From NCBI GenBank assembly GCA_000091205.1, contig AP006498.2: DNA of 64,000 nucleotides, one strand, 5' to 3'. Positions 28,307 through 56,950 of this stretch are shown piece after piece; positions within the stretch are counted from its first letter, which is position 1; each line of letters begins with the position of its first letter. The translations under genes were made by a program, and so were the position numbers. This DNA comes from Cyanidioschyzon merolae. Lineage: Eukaryota. The notes below the pieces were generated by a model. It saw only the letters and a program-made list of their open reading frames with translations, had not been told where the DNA came from and made no database searches.

Positions 28307-28344
<38 letters not shown>
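28307..28344 (+). repeat. (CCAG)9.5 microsatellite
   Basis: ccagccagccagcc... read directly in an intergenic region. Confidence 0.9.
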
Positions 28345-28350
<6 letters not shown>

Positions 28351-32890: not shown

Positions 32891-33480
32891 ATGCATGATC
32901 ACGAAGGAGAGAGGCGGCTCCCAGGATATATCCTAACAGTCAAGTTTCTCCAGCGTGTCGTGCAGCGAAGACAAGCCTGCATCCCCAGACTGTACGAGCA
33001 CAAACTGACGACGAGACCCGATTCTACGTCGGGTGAACCACACCTCGAGCCGATGCCCTCTGGGGTATAGAAAAGCAGTTCTAGCTCGATGAACTATCTG
33101 CTCCAGCATTTAAGGTGCAAAGGCGGATACGGAACGGCAGGTACGAGGCACACCCGATAGGACTTATGAAACGACCAGAATATCCGAGAAGAAGTATAGG
33201 TAATGGAACTTGGAAGTAGGCTGTTTGATGGATAATTCACCGCACATTGGAAAACACAAAAAAGTAAGAAAAGAAAAATGCGCATAGTCGGAGAACGCTG
33301 GCCAAAGGAAACGTTTTGTTAATGAAAAAAATGCCGCCGTTGAAGGAAAACGTGATCTTGATATCTAGCATGTAGCTCTAATGTAAAAGTTGTATTTTCG
33401 TTAACTTCATAGCCAAGTATAGTTTTCAGTTCATTTGAGTTTCAAACCTCAAACATGTGTATTCAATTGTTTTGTCGCAG

Positions 33481-33488
33481 TATATAAC
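33481..33488 (+). promoter_or_regulatory. candidate TATA box ~55 bp upstream of the Fanzor-like ATG (33542)
   Basis: gcagtatataacag. Conserved in copy C (tgtgtataacag) but mutated in copy B (cagtatcgaacag). Confidence 0.25.
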
Positions 33489-33541
33489 AGAAGCGTTCCA
33501 GGAGCTTTCTTTTTCAAAAAAAAAACTAAAAAAGGAAAGTT

Positions 33542-35755
33542 ATGAAAAAGCAAGTCGACGATCCTGGAGGCCGAGGGTCGCCGGCTGCCAGAAAAAAAAC
33601 AAAAAACAGTGCCAAGTCCAGAAGAAAAGGAAAAGAAGAAGGACCAAAGGGGGAAGGGGGGAGACTCTACGTCGAAGGATGCAAGAAAGACGAATGTACG
33701 ACGAGATGGTGGTGAAAACCTTTCTTCATGGCCATATCAAGGATCCCTACAGGGAAAAGTTGCAAGACGCTATCAGAAACCGTGTCGACTCGTACTCCAA
33801 GAGTATTGTCAAGGCGTCGTCAGGACTGATGCATTTGGTACGGGAGATGTATCGCGACGTGACGCACATGGAAACGGTGGAGATTCCGGACGAGTTTTTC
33901 GATAAGAAGTTTATTCGTCAGCTGATGCTTGGTACAGAGGAAGCGCGGAGGGAAAATGTATGAGTGCATGCCCTCCACGAAAAACATCCCTTTTACAGCT
34001 TCAACGGTACTCGATACAAGGGTGACCGGGATATTTACAGCTATGGGGCGATGAAGTACCTCACGAATCTGAAGAATCCTTTGACAGTGAACCTCGAACG
34101 TTTCATGATACGCGCCGTGTTTGCACTCGATCCCGGGCATCTCTCCCAAAGGGATATGGGCGATTACCAATGGCATCACGAACAATCGCCGGCGTGTAGA
34201 TGGGATCGAATTTGTCGACAAGAAGGCGTCAAAAGAGATCACGAATGAAGCTTCTGTTATCCGTGCGGCTATACAAGTGCACCGTGCAGTTTTGGGGCTG
34301 GCGAATCCGACAGACAAGATATCAGAGTTGAAAAAAGATAAGGAAAGATACGATCGTCTCGTCCTACGGTATTTTGTGTTTTTGGACCGAGAGCTCGATC
34401 GCAAAGCGGAGATGAAGCTGAGCGAGGAAAAAAATGAAGAATGGGAGAGACGGAAGGCGTTCCTAATGGGCGAGCGCTTCAACGTGGTTCCGTTGGGCAA
34501 CATCAAGTCACATTTTGTGACTATCGACTCCGGCGTCCTTTACGGCATCATGACTGAGACCAGTCCCGAGTTCGATGTAAGGAGCACAGAGATCACCGCC
34601 GAAACCCGCGAGACGTACTGGAAGAATATCTTCAATTTCAAAGGGCTCAAAGTCAGCAAGAAAAAGGAATTCACTGGGTTGATCGAAAGCGATGGAGTAG
34701 CCATGTGTGTACACTATCTGCGGTTGTTGAAAGATCGTCCAGTTCTGCCCTCGGCTTCGCGCTCGGCGAAACATGAAGAAAACAAACAAGCGGATCCTGC
34801 GACGCAGAAAGTGCAGGAAAACGACTTTGTCGTTGGCGCGGACCCCGGAAACACAAATATCATATCCATCGCTGTATCCAAGCTTGCGGACGATGGTTCT
34901 GACGGTAACTTGCGTCAGAAACACATGCGTCTTCTGAGGTTCTCGAGCGCAAGAGACTAAAGAGAATCCGGAATAATGAATGTGCGGAAGAAAATTGAGA
35001 CATGGAATGCAGGAATAAAGGACCACTTGGAAGCTATGAGCGAGGTGACGAGCCGAGGAGCGGGCTTTCAAGCTTTTCTGAAATTCATGAAAGTTCGCGT
35101 TGCTCATTGGGAGGCGCTGTGGGAGGAGTATACAAAGCCTCGGTGGGCTCGTCTGCGTATGAATCTATACTGTGGGAAGCAGCGGGCGTTCGCGAACTTT
35201 TTCAATCAGTTGAGCGCCCTGAAGGTGGATGTGAGTCAGAGGCTCGTCGTAGCATACGGAGCAGGGCGCTGGAAGACCCAAAAAGGGTGTACACCAGCTC
35301 CAACGACGAGAGCGCACAAGGAGTGTGCACGGCGTTTCGTAACGATACCTGTAGATGAGTTTCGAACATCGTATACACACCACGAGCTGGATTGTACACT
35401 TCAGAGGGTCGAGATGGAAAAGTGCCAGAGGAGCCCTGAAGATATAATAAAGTATGGACCGCTGACGGAGGAGCAAATGGAAAGGAGGGCAAAAGTTCGG
35501 CGACTACTTGCATTAGTAAGTACAACCAATCATGGCAAGAAACGTATGGAATTCGTGAATCGTGACTTTGATGCCGCCATCAATATCAGGAAATGTGCGG
35601 TACTGGAGACGAGAGCTCCAGAGTGGACAAGAGAGAACTTTAATGGACAACCTCTCAAAGTCGAACTATATAAGAAAAAATTGAAACTAGTAGTAGGTGG
35701 ACGTTCCAAACAAACTAGGAGGCGTCTGCACGTCAGTTGGAGACGATTTGTCTAA
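33542..35755 (+). pseudogene. Fanzor/TnpB-like nuclease gene of copy A, disrupted
   Basis: Homopolymer frameshift after MKKQVDDPGG. In-frame TGA at ~33961. A +1 frame change inside 34121-34248 shared with copies B and C. In-frame TAA at 34958 shared with copy C. The 3' part (34976-35755) is intact. Confidence 0.7.
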
Positions 35756-35870
35756 GGCGCGTTTGCCGCCACTACGGTACACTGCTGGCAGCAACGTTTT
35801 TCATTTGAAAAACGTTTGGCGGCGAGCTGCTCATTTCCCACGGGCAGACACCTAAAGCGGGTCATCTGGT

Positions 35871-37913
35871 ATGCTGATGCAGTCAGACACGCCTGTCTCG
35901 AAGAGAAGAGATGTCGAAGCTTGTGACACGTTGACAACGGCCGGTGAGGACGCGGACTCGAACGCGCTTCAAGTAGTTTTACAGGGGCGAGCTGCCGGCT
36001 ATACGTGGTCTGACCGTCGAACAGCGCTTGATCGCCTCTGCGAAAGTCTGAAAACGACGACAGCACTGGCGTGGCTGTCTAGGTTTCCCGAGCTGTTCGC
36101 GGTGGAGGGCGCTGGGCGTCTCGGTGTGGCCCTGTGCCAGCACGCAGAGGAACTGCGTCCGTCTATTGTGGCGAGTGCGTGTCGCCTTGTTCACCAGATA
36201 GCGGCATCCTTACAACAGTGCATAGAGACCGTTGACAGCGGCCGTCGTTGTCATGTTGAGGCATGGGCTCGCACGTTCCACGCTCGTGTGCACCAGGGCG
36301 TCTACAGCGCGGTGACAGCGCACGTCACGAGCGCGACTGCAGTCGCACACGCCGCGTTGGAGGCGCTGAATGAGCTGGCAGTGAAAGTGGATGAAGAGCG
36401 TTGCTCCGTCGAGCGCGATGAACACGAACAGCAACAGGTCCAACGAGCGGACGCTGGTGAAACGTCACCACAAGTAGAGGAGCTTCAGACGGACATGACA
36501 GGCGCTAGCTGCAGTCACGCTCGTGCGACCATGCTCTCGGGTGACAGGAAAAAAGCCACGAGTGAGGAAACGGATGCATCCGCAAAACTCAGCCCACAAC
36601 TCGAGCTTGAAGCTGATCTAGAGCATTGGGCAGCGCCGCTGGCAGCCAATGCTAGCAGCGTCCTCGACTATTCCTTGTCCGTACGCAAGCATATCTCACT
36701 CGTTTCAAGGAACGAGAGGAACGCTTCCCTGGATTGTCCCAGGACGGGTTCACCCGTAGGCTCGCACGAGAATGCTCTGTCTACCACAAGTGCGGCTTCT
36801 GCAGACAAAGAGAATACCGAGGCAGGCGGCACGCGAGACAACGGCAGCCGAACGGCGCTCGCCCTGCGCAGTGCACCACCAGCCGTGCACAGGCCTGAAA
36901 CGGCATCAAATGCGCCACTGAATAAGACCGAGGCCGACGCTGCGCTCGTTGAAAAGAACCGAGAACTGACTGCGATTCTACAACAGTATGAGGCGACTTT
37001 AGAAACGTTGATTCAGAGCGAAACCGAGTCGCAGGCTTGCAGTGTTCGCACCAAACTCCTTAACCTGGACACGGAGAACAATCAGTTGAAGGCTGATCTG
37101 CTCACATGTACGGAAGCTTTCGAACAGCTTCGTTCAAGGTATCGAGATTTGAAAGAAAAGCTTCAAGTCGCTCAGGAAAATGAGCGACGAGCGACTGCCA
37201 TCGCCCAGACAGCCTCCGAAAGAATGGACGAAATGGAGCGATACCTTCGGGAATTCAAGCACCATGCCGAACAGAAACTGACGCAGGCTTTTCAGCTGGT
37301 TAGCCAGAGCAAAAACGACGTGATGACCAGGGACGCCACCATTACGTCTTTGGAAAAGGCCCTTGAAGCCAAGCGTACGGAATGCGCAGAGAAAGACGCC
37401 GCTATCAGCGAAGCCATGCACATGTACCGTCGAGCGGAGAGCTCGCAAGAGCAACTGCAGGCGCGTATCGTAGCTCTTGAAAACGAGATGCAAGCGCTGC
37501 GCTCCAGGGCTCAAACTGCCGAATCCGAACTGGAGGTGTTGCGTTCGGAACTCGCAGTCAGTGGGCCCAGTAACCTGCTAGGTGATGCGAGTGCCCCGCT
37601 GGGACCCCAGCTGGAGGAACTCCGCTCCGCGCTGGCAGCTGCACGTTCCAGGGAAGAAACGCTCCAGCGCGAACTCAAAAGGCTCAATAATGAAAACCAG
37701 AGCCTCAAAGCGCGCACCTATGATCATCTGCAGACCATCGAGTCGCTCCGTGCTGAACTGCAGCGGCCAAAGCCAGTTCCAACCCCAGCCCTTGGCATAG
37801 ACGCTGCGGAGGTTGAGCGTTTGCGCGACGAGAACGAGGAGCTGCACCAGCTCTGTAACACCCTTCTGGAGAAACTAGAAGCGCTCGAAGCGAGAACTTC
37901 TGCAGCGCACTAG
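35871..37913 (+). CDS. coiled-coil protein (hypothetical)
   Basis: ATG start verified. The C-terminal ~350 aa is heptad-rich (LKADLLTCTEAFEQLRSRYRDLKEKLQVAQENERRA ... LENEMQALRSRAQTAESELEVLRSELA). No enzymatic motif seen. Confidence 0.4.
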   Translation: MLMQSDTPVSKRRDVEACDTLTTAGEDADSNALQVVLQGRAAGYTWSDRRTALDRLCESLKTTTALAWLSRFPELFAVEGAGRLGVALCQHAEELRPSIVASACRLVHQIAASLQQCIETVDSGRRCHVEAWARTFHARVHQGVYSAVTAHVTSATAVAHAALEALNELAVKVDEERCSVERDEHEQQQVQRADAGETSPQVEELQTDMTGASCSHARATMLSGDRKKATSEETDASAKLSPQLELEADLEHWAAPLAANASSVLDYSLSVRKHISLVSRNERNASLDCPRTGSPVGSHENALSTTSAASADKENTEAGGTRDNGSRTALALRSAPPAVHRPETASNAPLNKTEADAALVEKNRELTAILQQYEATLETLIQSETESQACSVRTKLLNLDTENNQLKADLLTCTEAFEQLRSRYRDLKEKLQVAQENERRATAIAQTASERMDEMERYLREFKHHAEQKLTQAFQLVSQSKNDVMTRDATITSLEKALEAKRTECAEKDAAISEAMHMYRRAESSQEQLQARIVALENEMQALRSRAQTAESELEVLRSELAVSGPSNLLGDASAPLGPQLEELRSALAAARSREETLQRELKRLNNENQSLKARTYDHLQTIESLRAELQRPKPVPTPALGIDAAEVERLRDENEELHQLCNTLLEKLEALEARTSAAH

Positions 37914-38308
37914 ACATCCTCGCTCGTGCTGTACGTGCAAGCGTGCCCTCCGTTTCAGGATAGTCAGATTCTCTCCCAGGGGTTTACCACACAAACCTGC
38001 CCTGCAACACAAGCGTTTTTGCTTGAGCATCGTTCGAGTCTAGCTGGATAGAGCCCAGTCTTCGGGCTGCAGCGTGCAGCCAAAGAGGTCTGCTTTCAGC
38101 TGGCTGCCTTGGTGGAACTTGGTTGCCGGGAAAACGTCGCGGTAGGGAACGGCGTAAACGGCCAGGGCTCTGGCCTCGTTACCTCGAAGCCGCACGAACG
38201 GGTAACTTTGGAAGCAGCTGTCCAAAAGCCAGATCAGGCAACGGCGCCACTGTACTTGTTCTTCGGAGTAAATGGCTCGTCAGCAATTCGCATAAAAAGG
38301 TGATCTGT

Positions 38309-41300
38309 ATGGTGCACTCGCCACTCCCTGGTTCATACAAAACCTTTTCCACCGCTGATGAGAAAAGGCGCGTTCCGAATCAGCGCCCTATTCGAAAACA
38401 CCGCGGATGGAGGATTCGAGCGTTGTCGCGCAACGCGTTTCGCAACTTACCAGCGTCTCGCTTGAGTACTCCAATGACGGACTGGAAGCAATGGAAGGTG
38501 CGAGAACTGAAGCAGTACCTGTTGGAGCACGACCCCTCTGCCATGCCTGCTCAGCAGCGTCCAACCAAAGCCGAGCTCGTGGAAGCAGTAGAGCAGGTGC
38601 ACCAGCGGCTGCAACGGCGCCAGAAAACGAAGCAGAATCCGCCACGAGCGCTGCCGAAAGAAGAGGCACGGGAACCACGACGACCAGGACCACGACCACG
38701 ACAGTCAGCTCTTGGAGACGAAAGAAAGCTACCTACTACTCGTGCGCCGAGAACGCCCAAAAAAGCCGAACGACAGCAACAGGACTCAAACAGGGGTGTG
38801 GGCAAGTCGGAGGCCCCCGAGCGACCCTCTAGCTCGGAGAGTGTCACCGCAACGTCAAGAAAAACACGCCAGAAGCGAAGCGCTCGAAAGACGGAAGCTG
38901 TCCAAGGATCTTCTGGTGTGGACGGCTCGAGTTCTGGGAGGAAACGAGTGCGGCGCTCACCGCTGCGCGGCGAGGAGGCTCGGCGCCGACTCGTCGGGGA
39001 CGATATTCCCGAGGATCGCTCTCCAGACGGCGGGGCTTGGGCAGAATCCCAACATCCACTTCTCTGGAGTGTGCGTCCAAGGTCAGAGGCGCAGCTTTCA
39101 CCTGCGTCGCTGATCCAGGACCTGCGCAGAAGGCCTTTCTCTGCAAACGCCACATCGACGCGTACATCCAGTCCCGACCGACATCGTAGCGCGAGTCCAC
39201 GAGCTTCATCAACCTGGCAGGACACTACGCGCGAATTTCGCCCAACGAAGCAAGGTCGATCGCCGAGTCCTACCGTCTCTGCATCGAATGGTGCAGGGCC
39301 GAGTACGTCGAGCGGGCTCGGACTCCGGGAAGCGTTACGCGACGTGCTTAGCATGGTGAAGTCGCATGATCAATTAGAACCGATGGAATATGTCGAGTAC
39401 CCTGAGCAGGTGCTGCCTGCTGAAGCGGAGTCTCACGCGCGTTGGCACGCCTTGACACATCAGGTTTCAGCAGTAACACCGGAAGCTGGCGATGGAGCAT
39501 CGCGATCCTCACTGCATTCGTCGCCCGTTGCAGGTCGTGATGTGCCGTGGTTGCGTCAACCGCGCAACGCGGCTGCTCAGACAAAGGAGGCGTCTCGGAT
39601 AACTTTATTGCGTGATACCTGTGACCCATTGGCGCAGTCGCAGCACATGCCCCCGAGAGAGGACGTTGTCGCCCTCTCGACTGGTAGCCCAGGCGAGCTC
39701 ACGTCGGGCGGTACACTGGCTGGCACCCGATCGACTCCGACGCGAGCATACACTGTTCAACAGGATGAAGCAGCCTCGGGATTCATGACAGGTTCAATGG
39801 AAGGTACGAGACTGGCATCGCTCCATGAGCAAGTTAGCGCAGTGCTCGAGCGTATACGCGCCGAGCAAGCAAACCTCGTATCTGGACCAGAGGCCGCCAC
39901 CAGTACAGCGCTGAGTCGAAACGCGGATAGCTTGGCGACGGACGCTCTGCATCAGCGTCTCGGCGACAGCGGAGCAGCAGCTCCAGCGGTAGCTTCCTTG
40001 GAGAACAGGTCGCCTGGAGGGAGCGCAGCGGCGCTGACTCGAGGCACCCTCACTGTCGCCCCAGAGCCGCCGTTTGCGCAGAGCCCGCTGCAAGCGTTTC
40101 GTACCTTGCGGCAAAATCGCGAGCGAATGCCCGTCAGCAGTGCAGCAACATTGACGGGCTCCTTGCGCGGACGACCTGTACATCCTCTGGAACAGCGTTC
40201 AGGCGACAGCGCTGAACGGTCGACCTCAGCCACGACGACGGATCCTACTCGATCACCGGGAGCGTTCCATGCCTCCTGGTCGCTGCCGTCGACAGACGCT
40301 CATTCAGGAGACCAGCCGTCTATCTCGGAGTCACAGAGGTATCTTGCGCGACCTGAGACGCATGCAGCGGTGCAGGAAACGAGCGCGGGCACTCCTGGGA
40401 ATGCTTCACGCGTCTCGAGACGGGATCCAGCCTTGCTGGGCAACCGCGCACTCGAACACCGTCACTGGCTCCGTAGCCACTGGAGAGTGCTCGTAGCGCT
40501 CTGTCTCCTTCTCTGGTTTGCCGTTCGCATATATCTCGTCTTGCCATCGATTCCCTTTTGTGATTCATCAGAGTCAGGTTCTGGCCCTGTGCTTGGATGT
40601 CGTCCGTGCCCCGAGCACGGCATCTGTGTCGGCGGTGTGCTTACCTGCCGAGACGGCTACGTCGTGCTCGGCAGTACATGCGCGCCTGACCGCGACCTCA
40701 ACCGTTATGCGCACATCATTCAGGGGCAAGTCCACCGCCTGCTCGGCGAATCCGCGGGTCGCTACCGCTGTGGTGAACGGGCCATACGTTGGAAATGGAC
40801 CGAACGAGAACTGCGCGAAGCACTGGAGCAGCATCCGTATATGGAGCGCCTCGTTCGAAGCAGCAAGTGGAAGGCTGCTTTTCGCCGTGCGCTGGATACG
40901 TTAGATGATCCCGTGGTGAAGCAGCCGCGCAGCGCGCATGACACAGTGCATAGGAGTCCGCGCTCCGTGGATGACGCGAACGACACCGTTCCTGCGGAAG
41001 CGTTTCAAAGAGGCGGCGCAGCGGAACGCCCGCTCCTCGCGGATGACTCTGGCACAAACAGCAACAGCAACAGCAACATCAGCCCGAATATGGCCAGCAA
41101 TGAGTCTATGCAACCCGATTCTGATGCCACGCAAACAGGGCAACTTGCTGACGATGAGCTACTACTCTACTGGAGCACCGATGCACAGCGGCCGATGTGG
41201 TGTCGCCTCTGGCAACTCACAGAAGCGCATCTTGGGAGTCTGATCTGGTTAGGGAGCATCACAGCCGTGACACTGATGTTCGCTACGACTTTGAGACGAA

Positions 41301-41662
41301 AGCGACTACGCCAGCGACAGATTCGGAGCCTCCAACAAGCCGTTCATGGTCGTCTCCAGGAGCAGAAACGATCATACCTTGTGGCGCTGCAGCGGGGGCG
41401 CGCCGATGTCGTGACCCCGTTTCTCATCGATGTGCACCTGCGGGATGAACTTCTCGGCGACATTGCGAACATTTACGACCGTCAACGCTTGTGGGAGGGG
41501 GTGAGTGCTCGCGCGCGGACCGACTCTCGCTTGCAGCTTCGCTCGGAGACGTTTACTGACGGCCGCCGCGCCCTCGTCTGGGAATGGACGGGGCCGCTGG
41601 GCTCCGCAGAGAACGCTGCACCGCATCTGGTGCTTTCAGGCGGCACCACAAGTGTCGAATAG
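38309..41662 (+). CDS. HeH/LEM-like inner-nuclear-membrane protein (Src1/Heh/MAN1-type architecture)
   Basis: N-terminal helix-extension-helix/SAP-like motif MTDWKQWKVRELKQYLLEHDPS ... PTKAELVEAVEQV (an alternative start at ATG 38474 would place it at the N-terminus). A long basic/S-rich linker with NLS-like KKAERQQQ/RKTRQKRSARK. Two TM helices (WRVLVALCLLLWFAVRIYLVL; LIWLGSITAVTLMFATTL) flank a Cys-rich lumenal loop. C-terminal domain ends ALVWEWTGP. Confidence 0.4.
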   Translation: MVHSPLPGSYKTFSTADEKRRVPNQRPIRKHRGWRIRALSRNAFRNLPASRLSTPMTDWKQWKVRELKQYLLEHDPSAMPAQQRPTKAELVEAVEQVHQRLQRRQKTKQNPPRALPKEEAREPRRPGPRPRQSALGDERKLPTTRAPRTPKKAERQQQDSNRGVGKSEAPERPSSSESVTATSRKTRQKRSARKTEAVQGSSGVDGSSSGRKRVRRSPLRGEEARRRLVGDDIPEDRSPDGGAWAESQHPLLWSVRPRSEAQLSPASLIQDLRRRPFSANATSTRTSSPDRHRSASPRASSTWQDTTREFRPTKQGRSPSPTVSASNGAGPSTSSGLGLREALRDVLSMVKSHDQLEPMEYVEYPEQVLPAEAESHARWHALTHQVSAVTPEAGDGASRSSLHSSPVAGRDVPWLRQPRNAAAQTKEASRITLLRDTCDPLAQSQHMPPREDVVALSTGSPGELTSGGTLAGTRSTPTRAYTVQQDEAASGFMTGSMEGTRLASLHEQVSAVLERIRAEQANLVSGPEAATSTALSRNADSLATDALHQRLGDSGAAAPAVASLENRSPGGSAAALTRGTLTVAPEPPFAQSPLQAFRTLRQNRERMPVSSAATLTGSLRGRPVHPLEQRSGDSAERSTSATTTDPTRSPGAFHASWSLPSTDAHSGDQPSISESQRYLARPETHAAVQETSAGTPGNASRVSRRDPALLGNRALEHRHWLRSHWRVLVALCLLLWFAVRIYLVLPSIPFCDSSESGSGPVLGCRPCPEHGICVGGVLTCRDGYVVLGSTCAPDRDLNRYAHIIQGQVHRLLGESAGRYRCGERAIRWKWTERELREALEQHPYMERLVRSSKWKAAFRRALDTLDDPVVKQPRSAHDTVHRSPRSVDDANDTVPAEAFQRGGAAERPLLADDSGTNSNSNSNISPNMASNESMQPDSDATQTGQLADDELLLYWSTDAQRPMWCRLWQLTEAHLGSLIWLGSITAVTLMFATTLRRKRLRQRQIRSLQQAVHGRLQEQKRSYLVALQRGRADVVTPFLIDVHLRDELLGDIANIYDRQRLWEGVSARARTDSRLQLRSETFTDGRRALVWEWTGPLGSAENAAPHLVLSGGTTSVE

Positions 41663-43296: not shown

Positions 43297-43328
43297 GGGG
43301 AGCGGGGCGGGGCGGGGCGGGGCGGGGT
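43297..43328 (+). repeat. (GGGGC)n tract with G-quadruplex potential
   Basis: ggggagcggggcggggcggggcggggcgggg read directly. It has at least five G4 runs and lies in a gene-poor stretch. Confidence 0.7.
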
Positions 43329-45097: not shown

Positions 45098-45568
45098 ATG
45101 AAGCTTTCGAAAGTTTTAGCGCTCGTTGTTTTTGGTCTGTTGATGGTAGTGCAGTGCGCCTGGGCACTGCCGGCTCCAACGTACGCGACGTCAGCGCTCG
45201 TAAGGAACGCGGGACGCACCTCTGTCCCTGTTGTGCTGACGTTTGGTGCAGAGGTATCGTGCTTGGGCTCCAACTCGACGGTCGACGTGAGTAGTATTGG
45301 CTGCTCGCACAATTCTATGAAAATGTCTGCGACAGTGCCTCCGAAAGTCTCGTCTACCATGGGGCCAGTGTCGATTGAATCCGGCAGCACGTCACAGGTT
45401 TGGCCAATAGCGTACATTGTCGTGGGCAGCACACGGGTCCCGATAGGCGAACTTTCCCGTTTCTTTAGCGGGGTTGTTTCCCCGCTGGGGATAGGCATCG
45501 GTGCGCCGGTTTCTGGACAGCGCGTCATCAAGACGGTGAGTGGCATATACTTCTCGGTTCCTACGTAA
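45098..45568 (+). CDS. small secreted protein (hypothetical)
   Basis: MKLSKVLALVVFGLLMVVQCAWALPAP is a classical signal peptide with an AWA cleavage site. The mature ~130 aa S/T/V-rich product has three Cys. Start set at ATG 45098 within the longer track ORF. Confidence 0.35.
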   Translation: MKLSKVLALVVFGLLMVVQCAWALPAPTYATSALVRNAGRTSVPVVLTFGAEVSCLGSNSTVDVSSIGCSHNSMKMSATVPPKVSSTMGPVSIESGSTSQVWPIAYIVVGSTRVPIGELSRFFSGVVSPLGIGIGAPVSGQRVIKTVSGIYFSVPT

Positions 45569-46904
45569 TGCACGAGGACATTGTGCCGTGGGGTGATACC
45601 TGGGGGAAACCGCGGGGCGACCCAAAAAATGGGCAGGTATAGACTCGCAATTCATACTGAGTGCACAGGGTCCAGAACCGCGCGAACAAGTGTGTCTCGG
45701 GGAAGCACGCTCGGTAGATGTACAGCGCCAAGCCATTCCACAGTTTTTGCCGAATAATCAGGAAGTTTCTCTGAATGTTTGCGTAGGTCGGCAGCCTTCA
45801 TGCGAGGTTGTGACTATCGCCGCTATGGAACGTGGACGTAAAGGCGGGATGCAGCACAACACAATGCTTATTCTCTGTATCGACACCGGTTTCGGACCAA
45901 AATGGAATGCTAGCAGCTCGCTCGGCTCCTTTTCTTTGATTTTCTCGAACTCGATTTCAGGTGTACAACCCCGGTAATCCAAGTACAGCAATAGAGACCT
46001 ATGTTTTCGAATTTAGAACTAGGATTCTCGGTCTTGTTTTCAGAGTGGCTCTTTCGATGCCTTGGGGCTGGAATTCGTCTCGCCATTAGCATCAATATCG
46101 TGCGCGACGCTTCCGACAGAGTGTTCGTCGCGGAACCGATACCATCATGCGATTCATATGTACGAGCTTGCACTCTTGTCAGTTCCGTAGGTGCGGCACG
46201 CTAAAATCATGCATTCGTCTGGTTCTCGATCGTTCTATTTCATGGCAACTCGTGGGCGCAGCAACCTCCGCGCCTGGATTGACGAGGAATCAAGTCGGCA
46301 TCGTCCTGTGACGACTGCTTCATCAGCTCATCCCAAGGTCCCATTGAAATTGTCACGTCAAAGAAGCGCTTCTTGCGGAGAGTGTACCACTGCTTTGCTC
46401 GAAGGTTGCGTAGTGGTATCGGATTCCATCGGCTCGGGCTCCAGCCATGGTTCTCCTGCCAGTACCTGTTTCATCACGGAAAACATCACGTTCCACGATC
46501 CCTTATCGATTGGAACTGTGCGCTTGCAGCAGACAGCGTACTCGCCCACAGGATCGTGCAGAAGAAGCACGATATCCCAGGGTACGGCAATGTGCGGAGA
46601 AAAGCAGGGCATTGACGGGAGTTTTCTGTGCGCATCGAGCGCATGCACAGAGCGATGGAGCGCGTCCTCTCGTGCTACAGGGCGGTGCCCGAGATGCAGT
46701 GGACAACATGGCAACTCCTGACAACAGCCAAGCGGTACCGCCGCGAAGGACGCACCGAGTCTGTGTACGAAGAAGATGAAAACGTCAAGAAAAATGTTGA
46801 TCAAAAATGTCCTCTGAGCACACAGTGCGTCAATATTGCCAAGATAATGTTTCGGGACCATAGGCTGTATAGATATTCAGCCACACACGGGCGCCCCTCA
46901 GTCT

Positions 46905-47430
46905 TTTTCGACCGGCCTCCTGCTATCGGTTTCATTTTCTCCCTGCACATTTCGAGTCTGAGAGGTTGTCCAACTAAGCTAGATCACTCGGCTCAGCTCC
47001 TGGGGTCTCGTCTTCTGCACCACACATCCTTTGATATTGATGGTGGCGTTGAAGTCTCGGTACGCGAGCCCCATGCGTTTCCTGCCTCTGGTTGAACTCA
47101 TCAACGCAGGGATTCCCCGAACGCGTGCACTCTTTGTCACTACAGTCTCGTCATCGCCTCGTCGGGCAAACACTTGCTCTCGCTTCTCTCATCTCTTCTT
47201 CTTCGTTCGATGGTCGACGAGCAGAGGGTTTTTCTGATTTTTGTCGAGCCCGGCGAAACCGGGCGATCCAGCATCCCCAGCTGCCATTTCCATACCTTTT
47301 CCTTGGGTTTTTTATTTCTTTGAATCAACGCACTTGGAGCACATCTGCTATAAACCGCGAGAAAGCATTTGATGAGACACTCCCGGGCGTGGAACACACC
47401 TGAGGGAAAAACTGAACGCATCGTACGGGG
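46905..47430 (-). mobile_element. ~0.55 kb non-autonomous Fanzor/TnpB-derived element (family-2 copy)
   Basis: Minus-strand ORF 46979-47173 encodes KRMGLAYRDFNATINIKGCVVQKTRPQE (RuvC-III). Nucleotides 46905-47050 align with the 3' ends of copies B and C (ctgagaggttgtccaac ... cacatcct-tgatattgatgg). The left-end block at 47330-47430 aligns with the 60.5 kb and 11.8 kb copies. Confidence 0.55.
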
Positions 47431-47627
47431 CTCTCATGAGTCATGGAGGCCGCATCGGATCGCGTCGCACGAGAGGCTAGGGCAGGGCGCATGTCCGCTT
47501 CTACCCATTAGATCCATAAATATACACCATGGTATAGTTTGGTCCAGGGGCAATCTTCTGCCACACCGGGTCTCCGCGCACGTCCGCTTCAGATTCATCG
47601 GTTTCCGCTGAGCGTTCCTGTCCCGCA

Positions 47628-49046
47628 ATGACACAGGAGTCGGTGGTCGAAGCGGAAGCCCGGCTCGAGGCCGGACTCGCCGTTTCCGACAAGGTAATGA
47701 ACTTCTCTCTCGGAAAGGCGACAGCTGTACCGTCGTCAAAACACGTCCATACGGCTGCGGTCTCCGCACAGACTGTCGTCGACGACGACGACGAGGACGC
47801 CGACGACGTCACTGCTACGTCCACGTCTGAAAAGGGACCAAAGAAGCCTCATAAAAGACGAGGAAAACGAGGTGGACGGCGAAAAGGTGCCAGTGAGAAC
47901 GGCGGAGGCGACAGCACTGTTGCTTCGTCGCCAGTACCACAGCCGCTTCCGAAGGCGACTTGTAGCACAGAACTCTGTGGCATCTCGCGGCTCTTTCCTG
48001 AGGGCGTCTACCCGGCTGGCGAGGTTCAGGACTATGTCGGAGACCAAGCTTATCGTACAACTCAAGCCGAAGTACGTGAACGGGAACGACTCTCGTTCGA
48101 TATGATTGGAAAAGCGCGAAAAGCAGCTGAGGTCCACCGGCGCGTGCGCACGTACATCCGGCCTCGAATTCAGCCCGGGATACGACTGGTTGATCTTTGT
48201 GAAGAGCTGGAAAACGCTACCCGGACACTCGTTGAGGAAGATGGCTTGGAAGCGGGTATAGCGTTTCCAACAGGTTGCTCGTTGAACCACGTGGCAGCGC
48301 ATTACACCCCGAACCGGGGCGACGACACCCGACTCCAGCACACAGACGTGATGAAACTGGACTTTGGCGTGCATGTGGACGGAATCATTATGGACTGTGC
48401 CTTTACCATTGCGTTTGACGAGCGCTACGAAAAGCTACTAGAAGCTGTGCGTGAAGCGACCAATGCGGGTATTCGAGCAGCAGGGATCGATGTGCGACTC
48501 AGCGAGATGGGTTCCATCATTCAAGAGGTCATGGAGAGCCACGAGATCGAGCTGGACGGCAAAGTGATGCCCATCCGCTCGATCCGTAACCTAAACGGAC
48601 ACAGTATTGACCGGTACCGCATCCACGCGGGTAAGACGGTGCCCATTGTGAAGAGCAGTGTGCCGGGGAAAATGGAGGAAGGCGAATTGTATGCCATTGA
48701 GACGTTTGGTTCTACTGGGCGCGCATACGTCACCGAGAGCGGAGAATGCTCCCATTACATGAAAGTATTCGATGCGTCGCACGTGCCGCTGAGGATGCCG
48801 CGTGCACGCCAGTTATTGAGTACGATCAACCGCCATTTTGGAACGCTGGCTTTCTGTCGTCGCTATCTGGATCGACTCGGTGAGGAGCGATACCTCATGG
48901 CACTGAAGCACTTGTGTGATGTGGGTATCGTGCAGCCGTATCCGCCATTGTGCGATGTGCCGGGTTCTTTGACAGCACAGTTCGAGCACACGATTCTGCT
49001 GCGGCCGACTGGTAAGGAAGTGCTAACTCGCGGCGACGACTTTTGA
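47628..49046 (+). CDS. METAP2: methionine aminopeptidase 2
   Basis: N-terminal poly-acidic/poly-basic block (DDDDEDADD; [16 protein letters not shown]). The catalytic domain matches MetAP2 almost motif-for-motif: [69 protein letters not shown] start verified. Confidence 0.92.
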
Positions 49047-49243
49047 TGCTGGCACCGAACACCGTTCGCAGTCGGACGATGCCGACCGTGTACAGTAGTG
49101 GCGGCAACCGCGCCCTAGACGAAACGTCTCTAACTGACGTGCAGACGCCGCCCTGCCGTTTTCGACCGGCCACCTACTACTGCTTCCACCTTCTTCTCAT
49201 ATAGTTCGACTTTGAGAGGTTGTCCAACAAAGTTTTCTCTTGT

Positions 49244-51300
49244 CTAGTCTGGAGGTCTCGTCTCCAGCACCGCACATCTCCTGATATTGATGGCGGCATT
49301 AAAGTCTCGGTTCACAAATTCCATACGTTTCTTTCCATCATTGTTCGTACTTACTAATGCGAGTAGTCCACGAACTTTCGCCATCCTTTCCATTTGCTCT
49401 TCCGTCAGCGGTCCATACTTTATTATATCTTCAGGGCTCCTCTGGCACTTGTCCATCTCCACTCTCTGAAGTGTACACCCCAGTTCATGGTGTGCATAGG
49501 ACGATCGGAACTCGTCTACAGGTATCGTAACGAAACGTCTTGCGCACTCCTTGTATACCCTCGTCGTTGGAGCTGGAGTAGTGCCTTTCTTGGGCGCCCA
49601 ACGCCCTGCCCCATACGCTACTACGAGCCTCTGACTTTCATCCTCCTTCAGGGCGCTCAACTGATTGAAAAAGTTCGCGAACGCCCGCTGCTTCCCGCAA
49701 TACAAATTCATTCGCAAACGAGCCCACCGGGGCTTGCTGTACTCTTCCCACAGCGCATCCCAATGGGCGATGCGAACTTCCATGAATGTCCGAAAAGCTC
49801 CAAAGTCCGCTCCTCGGCTAGTCACCTCGCTCAAAGCTTCTAGGTGCTCCTTCATTCCTGAATTCCAAGTCTCGATTTTCTTCCTCGCATTCCTCATTCC
49901 CGATTCTCGATAGTATCTCGCTCTGGAGAACCTCAAAGGACGCATGTCTTTCTGACGCAAGTTACCATCAATGCCATCTTCCGCAAGCTTGGATACAGCG
50001 ATGGATATGATATTTGTGTTTCCGGGGTCCGCACGAACGACAAAGTCGTTATCCTGCACTTCCTGTGTGGCAGGATCCGCCTTCTTCCCATCTTCATGCT
50101 TCGTCGAGGACGGAACTGGACGATCTGTCTTCAAGCGCCTTTAGTGTACACACATGGGTATTCCATCGGTTTCGTCTGAAAGTGAGCAACTTTTGCTTGC
50201 TCACTTTCAGACGTTTGTAATCGAAGATATTCTTCCATTACGTCTGGCGGGTTTCGCCGGAGAACTCTTCCCTGCGAAGATCGAACGCCGGACTGATCTC
50301 AGTCATGATGCCGTAAAGGACGCCGGAGTCGATAGTCACAAAATGTGACTTGATGTTGCCCAACGGAACCACGTTGAAGCGCTTGCCCATTAGGAACGCC
50401 TTCCGTCTCTCCCATTCCTCATTTTTTCCTCACTCAGCTTCATCTCCGCTTTGCGTTCGAGCTCTCGGTCCAAAAACACAAAATACCGTAGGACGAGACG
50501 ATCGTATCTTCCCTTATTTTTTTCAAATCTGATATCTTGTCTGTCGGATTCGCCAGCCCCAAAACTGCACGGTGCACTTGTATAGCCGCACGGATTACAG
50601 AAGCTTCATTCGTGATCTCTTTTGACGCCTTCTTGTCGACGAATTCGATCCCATCTACACGCCGGCGATTGTTCGTGATGCCATTGATAATCGCCCATAT
50701 CCCTTTGGGAGAGATGCCCGGGATAGAGCGCAAATACGGCTCTTATTATGAAACCTTCGAGGTTCACTGTCAAAGGATTCTTCAGATTCGTGAGGTACTT
50801 CATCGCCCCGTAGCTGTAAATATCCCGGTCACCCTTGTATCGAGTACCGCTGAAGCTGTAAAAGGGATGTTTTTCGTGGAGGGCATCCACTAGCACATTT
50901 TCCCTCCGCGCTTCCGCTGTGCCAAGCATCAGGTGTCGAATAAAGGTCTTGCCGAAAAACTCGTCCGGAATCTCCACCGTTTGCATGTGCGTCACGTCGC
51001 GATACATCTCCCGTACCAAATGCATCAGTCCTGACGACGCCTTGACAATACTCTTGGAGTACGAGTCGACGCGGTTTCTGATAGCGTCTCGCAACTTTTC
51101 CCTGTAGGGATCCTTGATATGGCCAAGAAGAAAGGTTTTCACAACCATCTCGTCGTACATTCGTCTTTCTTGCCGCCTTCGACGTAGAGCCTCCACCTTT
51201 CAGTCCTTCTTCTCTTCCTTTTCTTCTGGACTCGGCACAGTTTTTTGTTTTTTTTCTGGCAGCCGGCGACACTGGGCCTCCGGGATCGTCGACTTTTTTT
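49244..51300 (-). pseudogene. Fanzor/TnpB-like nuclease gene of copy B, disrupted
   Basis: The start codon is lost (ctataaaaaaagtcgacg versus ttATGaaaaagcaagtcgacg in copy A). There are several frameshifts in the 5' half. The 3' half (296-aa ORF 49244-50134) has RuvC-I to RuvC-III intact and reads through the position where A and C carry TAA. Confidence 0.7.
50173..50213. repeat. perfect 17-bp inverted repeat with a 7-nt spacer, private to copy B
   Basis: cgtctgaaagtgagcaa-cttttgc-ttgctcactttcagacg. Copies A and C carry a non-palindromic sequence at the same place. Confidence 0.8.
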
Positions 51301-52032
51301 ATAGCTTTCCTTTTTTTTTGGAAAAGAACACTCTTTGGACGCGTCTGTTCGATACTGCGAAAAAAAACTCGACTAGACTTGTTTGAGGGTTGAAACAAAA
51401 ACGAACTGAAAGACTATACTTGCCTATGAAGTTCACGAAAATACAACTTTTACACGAGAGCTAGACGCTAAGGATCACGATTACGTTTCCCTTCAACGGT
51501 GGCATACGCGTCGTGTCTCATGACTGCCCGATCCCCCAGATGCGCTCATCGAGCGCGATGCATGCGCTGCGCGAGACGCCTCACCGATCCATGAAGGACA
51601 CGTGTCCGACACCCCGTCTTGGCACATGCGTGTTCGCATCGCACTGCAGCCAAAATAACGTATCGTAGATCGGAAACGCACGTAGAATGAACTCTTGCTA
51701 TAGGTTCTGTCGCTGGCGCCGACGCTACTGCCCATCGCAGTACCGCCCTGACATACAAGGGGATGCAGGGGCCTGGCACGATACCCCTCGACGCTTCTAT
51801 CAAAAGCGTAGCGTTCTCTGCGGCTTACCGTTGTGTGGTTAAGGTATGCATCACTCTTCTCAATAGGATTTTCGTTAGTTTTATTGATCATAAACAAACA
51901 AGGTACGGTAGGATTCCTGAACACGGATACAGGTTTATTTCCTCTGCTTGTTATGTATGCTGCACGGTCGCTGGAACAGTGTCCGATTGTATGGGTGCTG
52001 CGTATCGAGGCTTGTCGCGCGCTCCAAGCACG

Positions 52033-54414
52033 CTACCACAGTGCGCATACTTTCCGCGGGTGCATGGCGGAGCCGCTGCGGCAACGAAACGCTTCAGCAA
52101 ACTCGGGAAACTGACTCAGAATCCCATTCACTCGGTAGCGATTGGGCGCGTGCACGTCCACCACGAGTCCTTCCATGGCATATTTGGGAGTTTCGTTCTC
52201 ACACCAGGTCTGGGCGAAGGCGACGAAATAGAGCTGCTCGGGTGTCCAGTCTGGCCGGATTCTGCGGGTGAGGTTCCATTCCCGGTGTCGGGCTGCCTCT
52301 GTTAGGTGTTCTTTGACGAGTCGATTATAGGCCGCGTACGCAGTCTTCATGCCTGTGAGATCCGCGAGATTCTCTTGCAGCGTTAAACGTCCGTTGACTG
52401 GTCGTCCATTCACTCGAAAGTGGTCGTAAAGATTTGTCATACATTTGGCCCTACGGTCGTATTCTTGGACGGCTTGAGGGCTCATCCAGTTCGAAAGACG
52501 ACCGTGCGCGTCGTAATGACGTCCGCCTGAGTCGAAGGCATGACCAAGTTCATGACCAATGACGTTCCCAAGTGCACCATAATTCACGGCCTCTGGGTAC
52601 AGCGCCGAATAAAAATTTGGAGCGAAATTCGCCGCTGGGATGTTCATGGAATTCGAGAGCGGGTCGTAGTATGCGTTCACGGTGATTGGGGTCATGTCCC
52701 AGAGACTTGGGTTCCGCGGGCCGCCAATCTGTTTCAAGATCGCATCGTTGCGGAACTGCCGACAGAGAAACACGTCGCCCAGCAAATCAGAGCCGTTGAG
52801 GTGCAGCGTATCGTAGTCCGGCCAGCGATCCGGGTAGCCGATGTTGTTCTGAACCAGACGCAGTTTCTCTAGAGCGGCCCGAAGTGAGCTCCTGCCCAGC
52901 CAGGCTCCATCGTCGCGCTTGAGGATCACCGCAAACTCTTCCTCGATGCTTCGGATTAGCTCTACTGCTTTTCCACGAAGCTCTGGAGAGAAGAAGCGCT
53001 GCACGTAGAGGCGACCAAGATCGTCCCCGATATGCGCATCCGCAAGGGCGAGACACTGACTCGATAGATTCGCAAGTCCCCGTCTACCTTCAACAATCTG
53101 ACCGAAAAAGCGAAAGTGCTCCGCCGCAAGCGACGAGTTGCCGGCTGCTCCCGCCATGGCGTTCAGCACGTGCCAGCGCAAGTACAGAGAGAGTTTTCTG
53201 GTCTCGTTCGAGATAGAGCTCAGTGCGACCATATCACTCAAGCGTTTCAAGAACGGGGGCCATTGCACCACCAATGGAATCGCAGAAGCGTTTTTTCCCG
53301 TTCCTGCAAGGAGGCTCTCAAGATAGTTCGTCCATGGGATCGCCGGGGCCATCTCGTGCTGCAGTGCGGTCAAGTTTGTGGGATTGTAGACGGCCCAGGC
53401 ATCGTCGCCAAGGTCTGCTTCTGCTTCTGAAGCCTTGGCCAACTCAGTTTCCCATTCGACAATGTTCGCTGCTGCCTGCATCGCTTCTGCTTGATCAGTG
53501 CCGCTCAGCGTGAGCATGCGACCTATGTGATTCGAATACTCATCAAGAATATCCTTATAGTATTCATCGAGATAGTAGTCACGCGTTGGCAACCCTAGCC
53601 CTCCTTGTTCAATGGTCAGCACCATTACCTCTGGGTGCATGCCATCCGGCAGCACCTCGTACGAAAAGAACGGTCGTGGGAGATTCCCTCCTGGATCGAC
53701 GACGCTGCGATGCATTTCGCCTAGAATCGCAAATAGCTCTGTGGGATCAGCGATTGTCTCTAACTGCGACAATATGCGTCCAAACCCAGATGCGTTCAAA
53801 AGTTCCGAGCTTGCATCATTTGCCAGTCCGTCTTCTCCGCTGCGCTCGATATCCGCTGCGCTCGGTTGTCCGGCCGCAAAGCACGCGTCAAAAAAGTCGA
53901 CCACACGCTGCTCGCTCGCCGTGCGAGAAACTGCCCGCCCACTGCGCAACGCCTGCACCATGGGCAGCAACGCGTCGCTGCAGCGCTCCTCCATGAGATC
54001 CGAGGTGCCCCACCGTGCTTCATTTGGCGGGATGGGTTGGCTGCGCAGGAAACCTCCGCACGCATAGGCGTAAAAGTCCTCACAGGGGTCTTCCTGCGGG
54101 TTTATAAACGCCCTTATCTCTCTCAGTACGCGGTCCTGGGTCTCGTTCGTCCCCTGGGTGCCGCCTGCACCACCAGGACCAGCGTAGCTCTTATTTCCAC
54201 TTTCTCGAGAGTATGAAATAAATAGAAGCAAGAGAAGCGCCGTCCCTATCGCCACCAGCACCAAAGTGCGACGAACGCGACGCCCGCGCTCTGTCACAGC
54301 TTGTCTCGCGACAGCGGACATATTAGCTCCATCAGAACCAACATCTCGAGATCCTGCTTCTTGATCTAGAGTACCGCGACCAAAGAGCGGTGATCTCTCT
54401 GACGGAACGCTCAT
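52033..54414 (-). CDS. M13 zinc metallopeptidase (neprilysin/endothelin-converting-enzyme family), type II membrane protein
   Basis: Signal-anchor RRTLVLVAIGTALLLLLFISY. Motifs NAYY, VIGHELGHAFD (HExxH), ENLADLTG (ExxxD) and C-terminal CENETPKYAMEGLVVDVHAPNRYRVNG. Start set at ATG 54414. The listed first 38 codons start at TTG and overlap the right end of copy C. Confidence 0.85.
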   Translation of the reverse strand: MSVPSERSPLFGRGTLDQEAGSRDVGSDGANMSAVARQAVTERGRRVRRTLVLVAIGTALLLLLFISYSRESGNKSYAGPGGAGGTQGTNETQDRVLREIRAFINPQEDPCEDFYAYACGGFLRSQPIPPNEARWGTSDLMEERCSDALLPMVQALRSGRAVSRTASEQRVVDFFDACFAAGQPSAADIERSGEDGLANDASSELLNASGFGRILSQLETIADPTELFAILGEMHRSVVDPGGNLPRPFFSYEVLPDGMHPEVMVLTIEQGGLGLPTRDYYLDEYYKDILDEYSNHIGRMLTLSGTDQAEAMQAAANIVEWETELAKASEAEADLGDDAWAVYNPTNLTALQHEMAPAIPWTNYLESLLAGTGKNASAIPLVVQWPPFLKRLSDMVALSSISNETRKLSLYLRWHVLNAMAGAAGNSSLAAEHFRFFGQIVEGRRGLANLSSQCLALADAHIGDDLGRLYVQRFFSPELRGKAVELIRSIEEEFAVILKRDDGAWLGRSSLRAALEKLRLVQNNIGYPDRWPDYDTLHLNGSDLLGDVFLCRQFRNDAILKQIGGPRNPSLWDMTPITVNAYYDPLSNSMNIPAANFAPNFYSALYPEAVNYGALGNVIGHELGHAFDSGGRHYDAHGRLSNWMSPQAVQEYDRRAKCMTNLYDHFRVNGRPVNGRLTLQENLADLTGMKTAYAAYNRLVKEHLTEAARHREWNLTRRIRPDWTPEQLYFVAFAQTWCENETPKYAMEGLVVDVHAPNRYRVNGILSQFPEFAEAFRCRSGSAMHPRKVCALW

Positions 54415-54449
54415 GACACTCTGGAAACCTCGTTCGCCACGGTAGCACC

Positions 54450-56950
54450 GCCACAGCCGTTCTAAGTCGGACGACGCCGACGGTATCCCGTAGTGGCGGC
54501 AAACGCGCCTTAGACAAATCGTCTCCAACTGACGTGCAGACGCGTCCCCGTCTTTTTCGACCGGCCACCCACTACTGCTTCTAACTTTTTCTTATATAGT
54601 TCGACTTTGAGAGGTTGTCCAACAAAGTTCTCTCTTGTCCACTCTGGAGGTCTCGTCTCCAGCACTGCACATCTCCTGATATTGATGGCGGCATCAAAGT
54701 CACGATTCACGAATTCCATACGTTTCTTGCCATCACTGGGTGTACTTACTAATGCAAGTAGTCCACGAACTTTTGCCCTCCTTTCCATTTGCTCCTCCGT
54801 AAGCGGTCCATACTTTATTATATCTTCAGGGCTCCTCTGGCACTTTTCCATCTCCACTCTCTGAAGTGTACAACCCAGCTCGTGGTGTGTATACGATGTT
54901 CGAAACTCATCTACAGGTATCGTAACGAAACGCCGTGCACACTCCTTGTGCGCTCTCGTCGTTGGAGCTGGTGTACACCCTTTTTGGGTCTTCCAGCGCC
55001 CTGCTCCGTATGCTACGACGAGCCTCTGACTTTCATCCTCCTTCAGGGCGTTCAACTGATTGAAAAAGTTCGCGAACGCCCGCTGTTTCCCACAGTATAG
55101 ATTCATACGCAGACGAGCCCACCGAGGCTTTGTATACTCCTCCCACAGCGCCTCCCAATGAGCAACGCGAACTTTCATGAATTTCAGAAAAGCTTGAAAG
55201 CCCGCTCCTCGGCTCGTCACCTCGCTCATAGCTTCCAAGTGGTCCTTTATTCCTGCATTCCATGTCTCAATTTTCTTCCGCACATTCATTATTCCGGATT
55301 CTCTTTAGTCTCTTGCGCTCGAGAACCTCAGAAGACGCATGTGTTTCTGACGCAAGTTACCGTCAGTACCATCGTCCGCAAGCTTGGATACAGCGATGGA
55401 TATGATATTTGTGTTTCCGGGGTCCGCGCGAACGACAAAGTCGTTTTCCTGCATTTTCTGCGTCGCAGGATCCGCTTGTTTGTTTCCTTCATGTTTCGCC
55501 GAGCGCGAAGCCGAGGGCGGAACTGGACGATCTTTCAACAACCGCAGATAGTGTACACACATGGCTACTCCATCGCTTTCGATCAACCCAGTGAATTCGT
55601 TTTTCTTGCTGACTTTGAGCCCTTTGAAATTGAAGATATTCTTCCAGTACGTCTCGCGGGTTTCGGCGGTGATCTCTGTGCTCCTTACATCGAACTCGGG
55701 ACTGGTCTCAGTCATGATGCCGTAAAGGACGCCGGAGTCGATAGTCACAAAATGTGACTTGATGTTGCCCAACGGAACCACGTTGAAGCGCTCGCCCATT
55801 AGGAACGCCTTCCGTCTCTCCCATTCTTCATTTTTTTCCTCACTCAGCTTCATCTCCGCTTTGCGATCGAGCTCTCGGTCCAAAAACACAAAATACCGTA
55901 GGACGAGACGATCGTATCTTTCCTTATCTTTTTTCAACTCTGATATCTTTTCTGTCGGATTCGCCAGCCCCGAAACTGCACGGTGCTCTTGCATAGCCGC
56001 ACGGATTACAGAAGCTGCATTCGTGATCTCTTTTGACGCCTTCTTGTCGACAAATTCGATCCCATCTACACGCCGGCGATTGTTCGTGATGCCGTTGGTA
56101 ATCGCCCATATCCCTTTGGGAGAGATGCCCGGGATAGAGTGCAAATGCGGCGCGTATCATGAAACGTTCGAGGTTCGTTGTCAAACGATTCTCCAGATTC
56201 GTGAGTCACTTCATCGCCCCATAGTCGTAAATATCCCGGTCATCCCTGTACTGGGTACCCTCGAAGCGGAATTCCGCGAAGTTTTCGTGGAGGGCATGCA
56301 CCCGCTCATTTTCCATCCGCGCTTCCTCTGTACCAAGCATCAGCTGACGAATAAACTTCTTATCGAAAAACTCGTCCGGAATCTCCACCGTTTGCATGTG
56401 CGTCACGTCGCGATACATCTCCCGTACCAAATGCATCAGTCCTGACGACGCCTTGACAATACTCTTGGAGTACGAGTCGACGCGGTTTCTGATAGCGTCT
56501 CGCAACTTTTCCCTGTAGGGATCCTTGATATGGCCATGAAGAAAGGTTTTCACCACCATCTCGTCGTACATTCGTCTTTCTTGCATCCTTCGACGTAGAG
56601 TCTCCCCCCCTTCCCCTTTGGTCCTTCTTCTTTTCCTTTTCTTCTGGACTTGGCACTGTTTTTTGTTTTTTCTGGCAGCCGGCGACACTGGGCCTCCAGG
56701 ATCGTGGACTTGCTTTTTCATCACTTTCCTTTTTTTGTTTGTTTTTGAAAAACAACGCTCTTTGATCCCTTCTGTTATACACAGCAAAAAATCAATCGAG
56801 CATTTTTGCTTGAGGTTTGAAACACAAATGAACTGAAAACTGTACTTTGCTACGACCTCAACGCAAACACAACTTTTACAGCTGAACAAGACGCTTCTGA
56901 TCGCGATTGCGTCTCCCTTCAACGGCGACGGGCGCTTCGTGTCTAATGCC
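54450..56950 (-). mobile_element. Fanzor/TnpB-like transposon, copy C (~2.5 kb)
   Basis: Collinear with copy A end to end. It shares the left-end block (cattagacacgaagcg ... ccgttgaagggagacg) with copy B and the right end (ggcgcgtttgccgccactacgg ... gtcggcgtcgtccgacttagaacgg) with A and B. Confidence 0.8.
54510..56721 (-). pseudogene. Fanzor/TnpB-like nuclease gene of copy C, disrupted
   Basis: Intact N-terminus MKKQVHDPGG ... KKRKRRRTK ... MQERRMYDEMVV. Private TGA at ~56206. The same +1 frame change and TAA as copy A. Intact 259-aa RuvC-II/ZnF/RuvC-III segment (54510-55289). Confidence 0.7.

Follow-up and report, generated by a model that had tools for sequence, protein, structure and literature searches.

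The window analyzed here is a stretch of 64,000 nucleotides from a nuclear chromosome of the red alga Cyanidioschyzon merolae 10D (GenBank assembly GCA_000091205.1, contig AP006498.2), and among its genes lie three long copies and several short derivatives of a transposon whose protein, judged by profile searches and a predicted structure, belongs to the Fanzor1 group of TnpB-like RuvC nucleases. An earlier reading of the same DNA, the original prediction, had described three related elements of about 2.5 kb here, and their presence was confirmed by blastn, with the following extents (positions are those of the window; the copies are called c1, c2 and c3):

33331-35821, + strand: c1, 2.5-kb Fanzor1 core element, pseudogene
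49053-51531, - strand: c2, 2.5-kb Fanzor1 core element, the most decayed of the three copies
54448-57655, - strand: c3, complete element of ~3.2 kb, pseudogene, consisting of a core (54448-56957) and a 5' module (56990-57655)

With c1 as the blastn query against the window for further long copies, c1 33331-35790 aligned with c2 51505-49080 at 87.4% identity and c1 33335-35777 with c3 56927-54488 at 94.3% identity; c2 49052-51531 and c3 54445-56957 are 86.2% identical, and the three long copies are accordingly 86-94% identical, a pairwise difference of 6-14%. The cores were located as predicted, and only c3 had been drawn too short: many metagenome copies are collinear with it over 57655-54448, which gives a complete element of ~3.2 kb. 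A covariance model built on the 3' end set the right ends at 35821 (c1), 49053 (c2) and 54448 (c3). On the 5' flank only a T-rich stretch precedes the conserved left end. At the start of the core, c2 and c3 share ~26-30 nt that are missing from c1. Similarity stops at the element ends, and the flanks and neighbouring genes are unrelated, which indicates that c1, c2 and c3 are separate insertions. In addition, 479 related stretches were found in hot-spring metagenome contigs, at many unrelated loci and with the same right boundary, and 80 of these loci were fetched for comparison. Three copies within 24 kb that share an inactivating mutation (see below) and show no target site duplications might instead have arisen by segmental duplication of a single locus, and would then be uninformative on mobility. 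We consider this origin very improbable, as the similarity ends so sharply between different flanking genes, the copies differ in orientation, the metagenome stretches keep one right boundary in many contexts, and ~150 copies have been counted genome-wide (Bao and Jurka, PMC3627910).

The sequence signature of a RuvC nuclease that had been predicted for the elements, together with a stretch resembling a nuclear localization signal (NLS), was found in all three copies:

34832-34858 (c1), 50012-50038 (c2), 55407-55433 (c3): RuvC-I, V(G/R)ADPGNTN
35348-35371 (c1), 49499-49522 (c2), 54894-54917 (c3): RuvC-II, PVDEFR(T/S)S
35558-35587 (c1), 49283-49312 (c2), 54678-54707 (c3): RuvC-III, NRDF(D/N)AAINI
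33622-33642 (c1), 51205-51225 (c2), 56623-56643 (c3): KKRKRRR, NLS-like

The codons for the catalytic D, E and D are kept in c1, c2 and c3. A reconstructed 736-aa consensus, used as the query in a homologue search, retrieved 44 relatives, almost all from hot-spring metagenomes, which bear the precomputed Pfam tag PF26935 / DUF8286. The family is large: 1.84 billion cluster representatives, searched with a profile, yielded 5,009 matches at E<=1e-3, of which 611 reached E<=1e-30. D398, E569 and D636 (in the numbering of P0037, an intact relative) are invariant in an alignment of 48 sequences from diverse members, and the profile of this alignment matched, among proteins of known structure in the PDB, PpFz1 (E 8.7e-28), SpuFz1 (E 3.1e-22) and GtFz1 (E 5e-16). 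In the SpuFz1 chain the invariant columns correspond to residues 777, 935 and 1000, that is, after correction for the 394-residue offset of the maltose-binding protein (MBP), to D383, E541 and D606, which are the Mg2+ ligands (Saito et al., PMC10432273). The longest open reading frame (ORF) of c2 is 53% identical to P0037 (E 7e-95), and its ADPG, VDEFR and NRDFN align onto D398, E569 and D636. Similarly, an AlphaFold (AF2) model of P0037 (pLDDT 74, pTM 0.61) matched SpuFz1 over its full length (Foldseek E 3.6e-17, TM-score 0.62/0.68) and has the domain layout of Fanzor1 (WED/REC/RuvC/NUC), with PpFz and GtFz next (E 4e-17 to 1e-14 for the three Fanzors), whereas Cas12f was reached only at E 3e-05 with a TM-score of ~0.2-0.3. 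The Pfam family PF07282 (Cas12f1-like_TNB) is matched by 19 of the 48 relatives, at best with E 9.6e-11, and the window copies and their close relatives score only E 0.1-0.2. Thus the proposal of a Fanzor-type TnpB-like RuvC transposon, with the HMM and structural comparisons suggested for it, was borne out, and profile and model together place the window copies in Fanzor1. A ~70-nt unit just before RuvC-I, which encodes an acidic linker (...KHEE.K.ADPATQEVQDND...), varies in tandem copy number among copies and strains (c2 50036-50105; the environmental orthologue L086, 6774-7066; protein P0001).

Each copy had also been credited with a protein of ~730 codons, and this did not hold. In three-frame translations and ORF listings the frame is broken in each of c1, c2 and c3, whose longest ORFs are 168, 279 and 259 aa (c1), 196 and 296 aa (c2), and 238, 279 and 259 aa (c3). 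A single-nucleotide insertion in the ALYPG|ISPKG region is common to all three:

34123-34140: shared 1-nt insertion in c1 (ALDPGH)
50714-50731: shared 1-nt insertion in c2
56125-56142: shared 1-nt insertion in c3

The spacer between two conserved anchors at this point is 40 nt long in c1-c3 and in the environmental orthologues L007, L013 and L086, compared with 39 nt in 41 other family copies; the copies with the 40-nt spacer read TATCCCGGG where the others have TACCCGGG, and homologues continue in frame across ...ALYPG(I/L)S..GKWAI... An in-frame TAA (ARD*R) is further common to c1 (34949-34963) and c3 (55302-55316). Private lesions add to these: in c1 a TGA stop (ENV*V, 33952-33966) and a poly-A frameshift at the N-terminus, in c3 a stop (AMK*LT, 56200-56217), and in c2 the change of ATG to ATA, more than four indels and stops close to the C-terminus, the 296-aa ORF of c2 (49244-50134, - strand) covering RuvC-I through RuvC-III. 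The three copies are therefore pseudogenes and cannot make the nuclease, and Fanzor-like copies are not among the annotated C. merolae 10D proteins.

That the frame changes at the identical nucleotide in c1-c3 and in orthologues from environmental strains, with all catalytic motif codons kept, could also be taken to mean that the copies are functional, full-length Fanzor still being made by a programmed ribosomal frameshift or through a tiny intron in a currently active family. The 41 other copies, the longest open ones included, are in frame with the 39-nt spacer, however, and every window copy has further in-frame stops or indels (ARD*R, ENV*V, AMK*LT, the lost ATG of c2), so that functional copies appear improbable in the extreme. 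Hardly any C. merolae gene contains an intron. The idea that a tiny intron produces the frame change was rejected, as there is no GT...AG interval of a length that would bring the frame back and the homologues are in frame there.

It follows from the common lesion that c1, c2 and c3, all pseudogenes, derive from one progenitor that was frameshifted before it spread to at least three sites. Because this frameshifted progenitor still reached at least three sites, mobilization would have taken place in trans, with no need for a Fanzor encoded in cis. Intact or near-intact relatives exist elsewhere (P0037 with 676 aa; L004 and L043 with 819 and 772 open codons), and open stretches of more than 600 codons were found in only three close-family copies among the 80 fetched loci, most of the others being broken. 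The c2 insertion recurs with identical site and frameshift in a related environmental strain, which is 97% identical across MetAP2 and the 3' part of the element and 93% identical further in. The original prediction of a recently active family thus finds no support in a set of copies that differ by 6-14%, share one insertion with a related strain and are mostly broken, in a family that was described as old by Bao and Jurka.

Conserved non-coding sequence had been predicted to follow the stop codon. Such a tail is real and it is short, as conservation among 73 copies falls sharply ~60-65 nt past the stop codon. Together with the last codons it forms a structured 3' module, and a covariance model spanning the terminal ~97 nt has exactly three matches in the window:

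35722-35821, + strand: 3' module of c1, candidate ωRNA scaffold, comprising the last codons, the stop codon and ~65 nt, with small hairpins and a long terminal hairpin at the element boundary
49053-49148, - strand: 3' module of c2, candidate ωRNA scaffold
54448-54543, - strand: 3' module of c3, candidate ωRNA scaffold

Folded sequence by sequence, the last ~40 nt give a hairpin of 13-19 bp at the boundary in most of the better-preserved copies. In the covariance-model alignment of 62 distinct sequences, 83% of the cells of the 3' hairpin are paired (35-51% in slid controls), 16 of its 24 pairs show double-sided changes, and for each of five measures the observed value is attained by only 0-1 of 500 shuffles. 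G·U cells number 181 and A·C cells 20 in this hairpin, an excess that points to RNA of the sense strand. The hairpins may alternatively be DNA-level signals of the transposon end, recognized by a transposase in the manner of the subterminal hairpins of IS200/IS605, and not parts of an ωRNA. The hairpin does stand exactly at the end of an element without terminal inverted repeats (PMC3627910), the palindrome AAACGTTT occurs both near the 5' end of the TE-N2-like module described below and in the c1-type 3' hairpin, and a hairpin of top-strand single-stranded DNA with G·T pairs would be compatible with the G·U excess. Nevertheless, the ratio of G·U to A·C of 9 to 1 is more easily explained by sense-strand RNA than by a signal in duplex or bottom-strand DNA, and position and size match the ωRNA scaffold of SpuFz1; the two roles are also compatible, the right end of TnpB elements serving both. 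We regard a purely DNA-level role as unlikely, though by no means negligible.

On the preferred reading, an intact element consists of a 5' module of ~650 bp that also occurs free-standing (TE-N2_CMe), a leader of ~220 nt, an intronless Fanzor1 gene of ~730 codons, whose product has a basic NLS-like N-terminus, a recognition and wedge (REC/WED) region and the D, E and D of a split RuvC domain, and a 3' tail of ~65 nt that folds with the last codons into the conserved hairpins. If SpuFz1 and TnpB are taken as models, sense-strand transcription of the 3' module would yield the scaffold of an ωRNA that continues at its 3' side into the flank and takes its guide from there, and DNA matching this guide would be cleaved by Fanzor bound to the ωRNA. 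The element does not itself encode the mobilizing enzyme, which would act in trans. We propose tentatively, at somewhat less than an even chance, that a thermoacidophilic red-algal Fanzor1 clade without the canonical zinc-finger cysteines has its ωRNA scaffold in the ~100-nt 3' module, and that mobilization is entirely in trans, possibly via the TE-N2-like module.

The original prediction could not place the family among the Fanzors; it is Fanzor1, and a Fanzor1 family of C. merolae has been published. Bao and Jurka (2013, Mobile DNA 4:12; PMC3627910) described one such family, CMe-1, with the element CMe-1A, which has ~150 copies with ~80% identity to the consensus, is ~3 kb long, lacks terminal inverted repeats and has undetermined target site duplications. 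Its 5' 635 bp are 95% identical to TE-N2_CMe (~70 copies), and it is an old family of which some copies still have an intact Fanzor1 (PMC3627910). The window elements agree in organism and protein class, in being multi-copy, old and mostly diverged, in the 3.2 kb of c3, in a 5' part of ~660 bp that recurs as solo repeats, and in showing neither terminal inverted repeats nor target site duplications; nothing in them contradicts the 2013 description. With high confidence, therefore, we take the three elements to be decayed copies of CMe-1A, so that the finding is a rediscovery of an already known family. Beyond the 2013 description are the structured 3' module, the frameshifted sub-lineage, the TE-N2-like module in either orientation and the internally deleted derivatives of ~570 bp.

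SpuFz1 of Spizellomyces punctatus (PDB 8GKH, 9CEU; Saito et al. 2023) matches in fold over its full length with D, E and D aligned, has a 75-nt ωRNA scaffold from the stop codon to the right end, similar in position and size to the 3' module here, and is accompanied in its genome by short relatives without ORFs, the 'ghost' elements, as the window elements are by the derivatives d1-d4 and TE-N2-like repeats listed below. Sequence identity to SpuFz1 is only ~15-17%, however, and the Spu-1 element has 30-nt inverted repeats of which none were found in the window elements, whereas the latter have an additional 5' module and are represented in the window by inactivated copies. The bacterial TnpB proteins (IS200/IS605, IS607; e.g. 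ISDra2 TnpB) and Cas12f share the order of the RuvC D, E and D and an RDxNAAxNI-type RuvC-III, and the TnpB elements also the logic of an ωRNA at the right end; the window elements differ from them in lying on a eukaryotic nuclear chromosome, with no TnpA (Y1 or serine recombinase) found, and in an N-terminal REC region that is much larger, and the structural match is much weaker.

Several results weigh against the assignments made above. With regard to the protein, no TnpB or Fanzor family came up when the ORF pieces and the 736-aa consensus were run through Pfam hmmscan, and no PDB sequence was matched by the c2 ORF in phmmer or by a narrower 15-sequence family profile; only the 48-sequence profile reached the Fanzors. 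The window copies do not keep the four cysteines that form the zinc finger in SpuFz1 and PpFz: between RuvC-II and RuvC-III (35372-35560, 49310-49500, 54705-54895), HHELGC...C replaces CxxC...CxxC, which in SpuFz1 reads CPRC...C..C, and the cysteines are likewise lost in many relatives of the same clade. The identity with CMe-1A was judged from organism, protein class, length and 5'-module relationship, by comparison with its published description. As to the 3' module, the role of this candidate ωRNA scaffold is argued from analogy, and the pairs were counted in an alignment that had itself been fitted to the model, which biases the counts towards structure. When 43 3' ends were aligned with plain MAFFT, RNAalifold returned a nearly empty consensus in which the terminal hairpin was not recovered, because indels misalign it, and with plain MAFFT the hairpin was recovered only in an ungapped subset of 16 sequences; this approach was superseded by per-sequence folding, the ungapped subset and the covariance-model realignment. 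Concerning mobility, terminal inverted repeats and target site duplications were not identified for the window copies, and an empty insertion site, looked for to define the duplications, was not found: the related strain with a 471-aa MetAP2 also has the c2 insertion.

As a discovery the elements are of small value, since the Fanzor1 of C. merolae was published in 2013 and the RNA-guided nuclease function of Fanzor has been known since 2023. The case does show that Fanzor motifs can be recognized correctly from sequence alone, and it provides the CMe-1A family with a precisely defined right end and a candidate scaffold for its ωRNA. A lineage with a dead ORF that still transposed fits the view that Fanzor is not a transposase. 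In addition, the intact relatives from hot-spring metagenomes could be assayed as thermotolerant editors; if the reading of an ωRNA and mobilization in trans is true, the intact members of the family in hot-spring Cyanidiales would be candidate heat- and acid-tolerant compact RNA-guided nucleases.

Further repeats in the window are related to the 5' module or to the core:

56990-57655, - strand: TE-N2-like 5' module of c3, ~660 bp
28344-29006, + strand: solo TE-N2-like repeat, 69% identical to the c3 5' module, orientation as in c3
7026-7639, - strand: solo TE-N2-like repeat, 68% identical to the c3 5' module
33006-33218: partial inverted TE-N2-like copy just upstream of c1
3970-4535, + strand: derivative d1, ~570 bp, internally deleted, diverged subfamily
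11825-12366, + strand: derivative d2, of which 12170-12366 is 74-77% identical to the RuvC-III-to-C-terminus coding part of c1-c3
46892-47409, - strand: derivative d3, of which 46892-47135 matches the C-terminal coding part of c1-c3 at 68-73% identity
60030-60580, - strand: derivative d4, which belongs with d1-d3 to one ~570-bp family

The TE-N2-like module of ~650 bp adjoins the 5' side of the core in direct orientation in c3 and many metagenome copies, and in inverted orientation in c1 and some metagenome copies (L046, L054, L065). Its occurrence in either orientation suggests repeated adjacent insertion or recombination, and not a fixed composite. The left end of the module has a T-rich run followed by (A/T)TGACAAAACGTTTAC (57630-57655, 28344-28370, 7615-7639), and near its 5' end lies the palindrome AAACGTTT, which is also present in the c1-type 3' terminal hairpin (c1 35795-35815) and may be a common end signal. 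The four short derivatives d1-d4 exist as predicted; members of the diverged ~570-bp subfamily, they retain the leader, the start region and the last ~80 codons, and none of them matched the covariance model of the 3' module.

The surroundings are those of an ordinary nuclear chromosome. Window proteins are identical to the C. merolae 10D entries for MetAP2 (BAM81860), a major facilitator superfamily (MFS) transporter (BAM81849), a TACC-like protein (BAM81858) and CMP252C (BAM81863), and further ORFs are ordinary eukaryotic genes (Nsp1, SNAP, 14-3-3, RagA, M13 peptidase, ArsA). The absence of a companion transposase, which had been predicted, agrees with Pfam scans, which found no transposase domain in the window, within or near the elements. 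Just upstream of c1, an ORF at 31518-32276, unrelated to the elements, has a weak match to RVT_1 (E 6e-06, below the Pfam cut-off), and the region 30060-32276 shows a strong AT skew and is probably a decayed retroelement; as this probable remnant adjoins c1, the interval of 30-36 kb would be a small cluster of transposon remnants. The mechanical ORF of the M13 peptidase (52033-54528) begins inside the 3' end of c3 (METICLRRVCRHYG... from the element tail); the true start must be further downstream, and c3 therefore abuts the 5' end of that gene. Finally, an 824-aa ORF at 17312-19786 codes for an ArsA-type arsenite-transport ATPase in duplicated form (Pfam E 3e-158), which fits the arsenic-rich hot springs that the alga inhabits.

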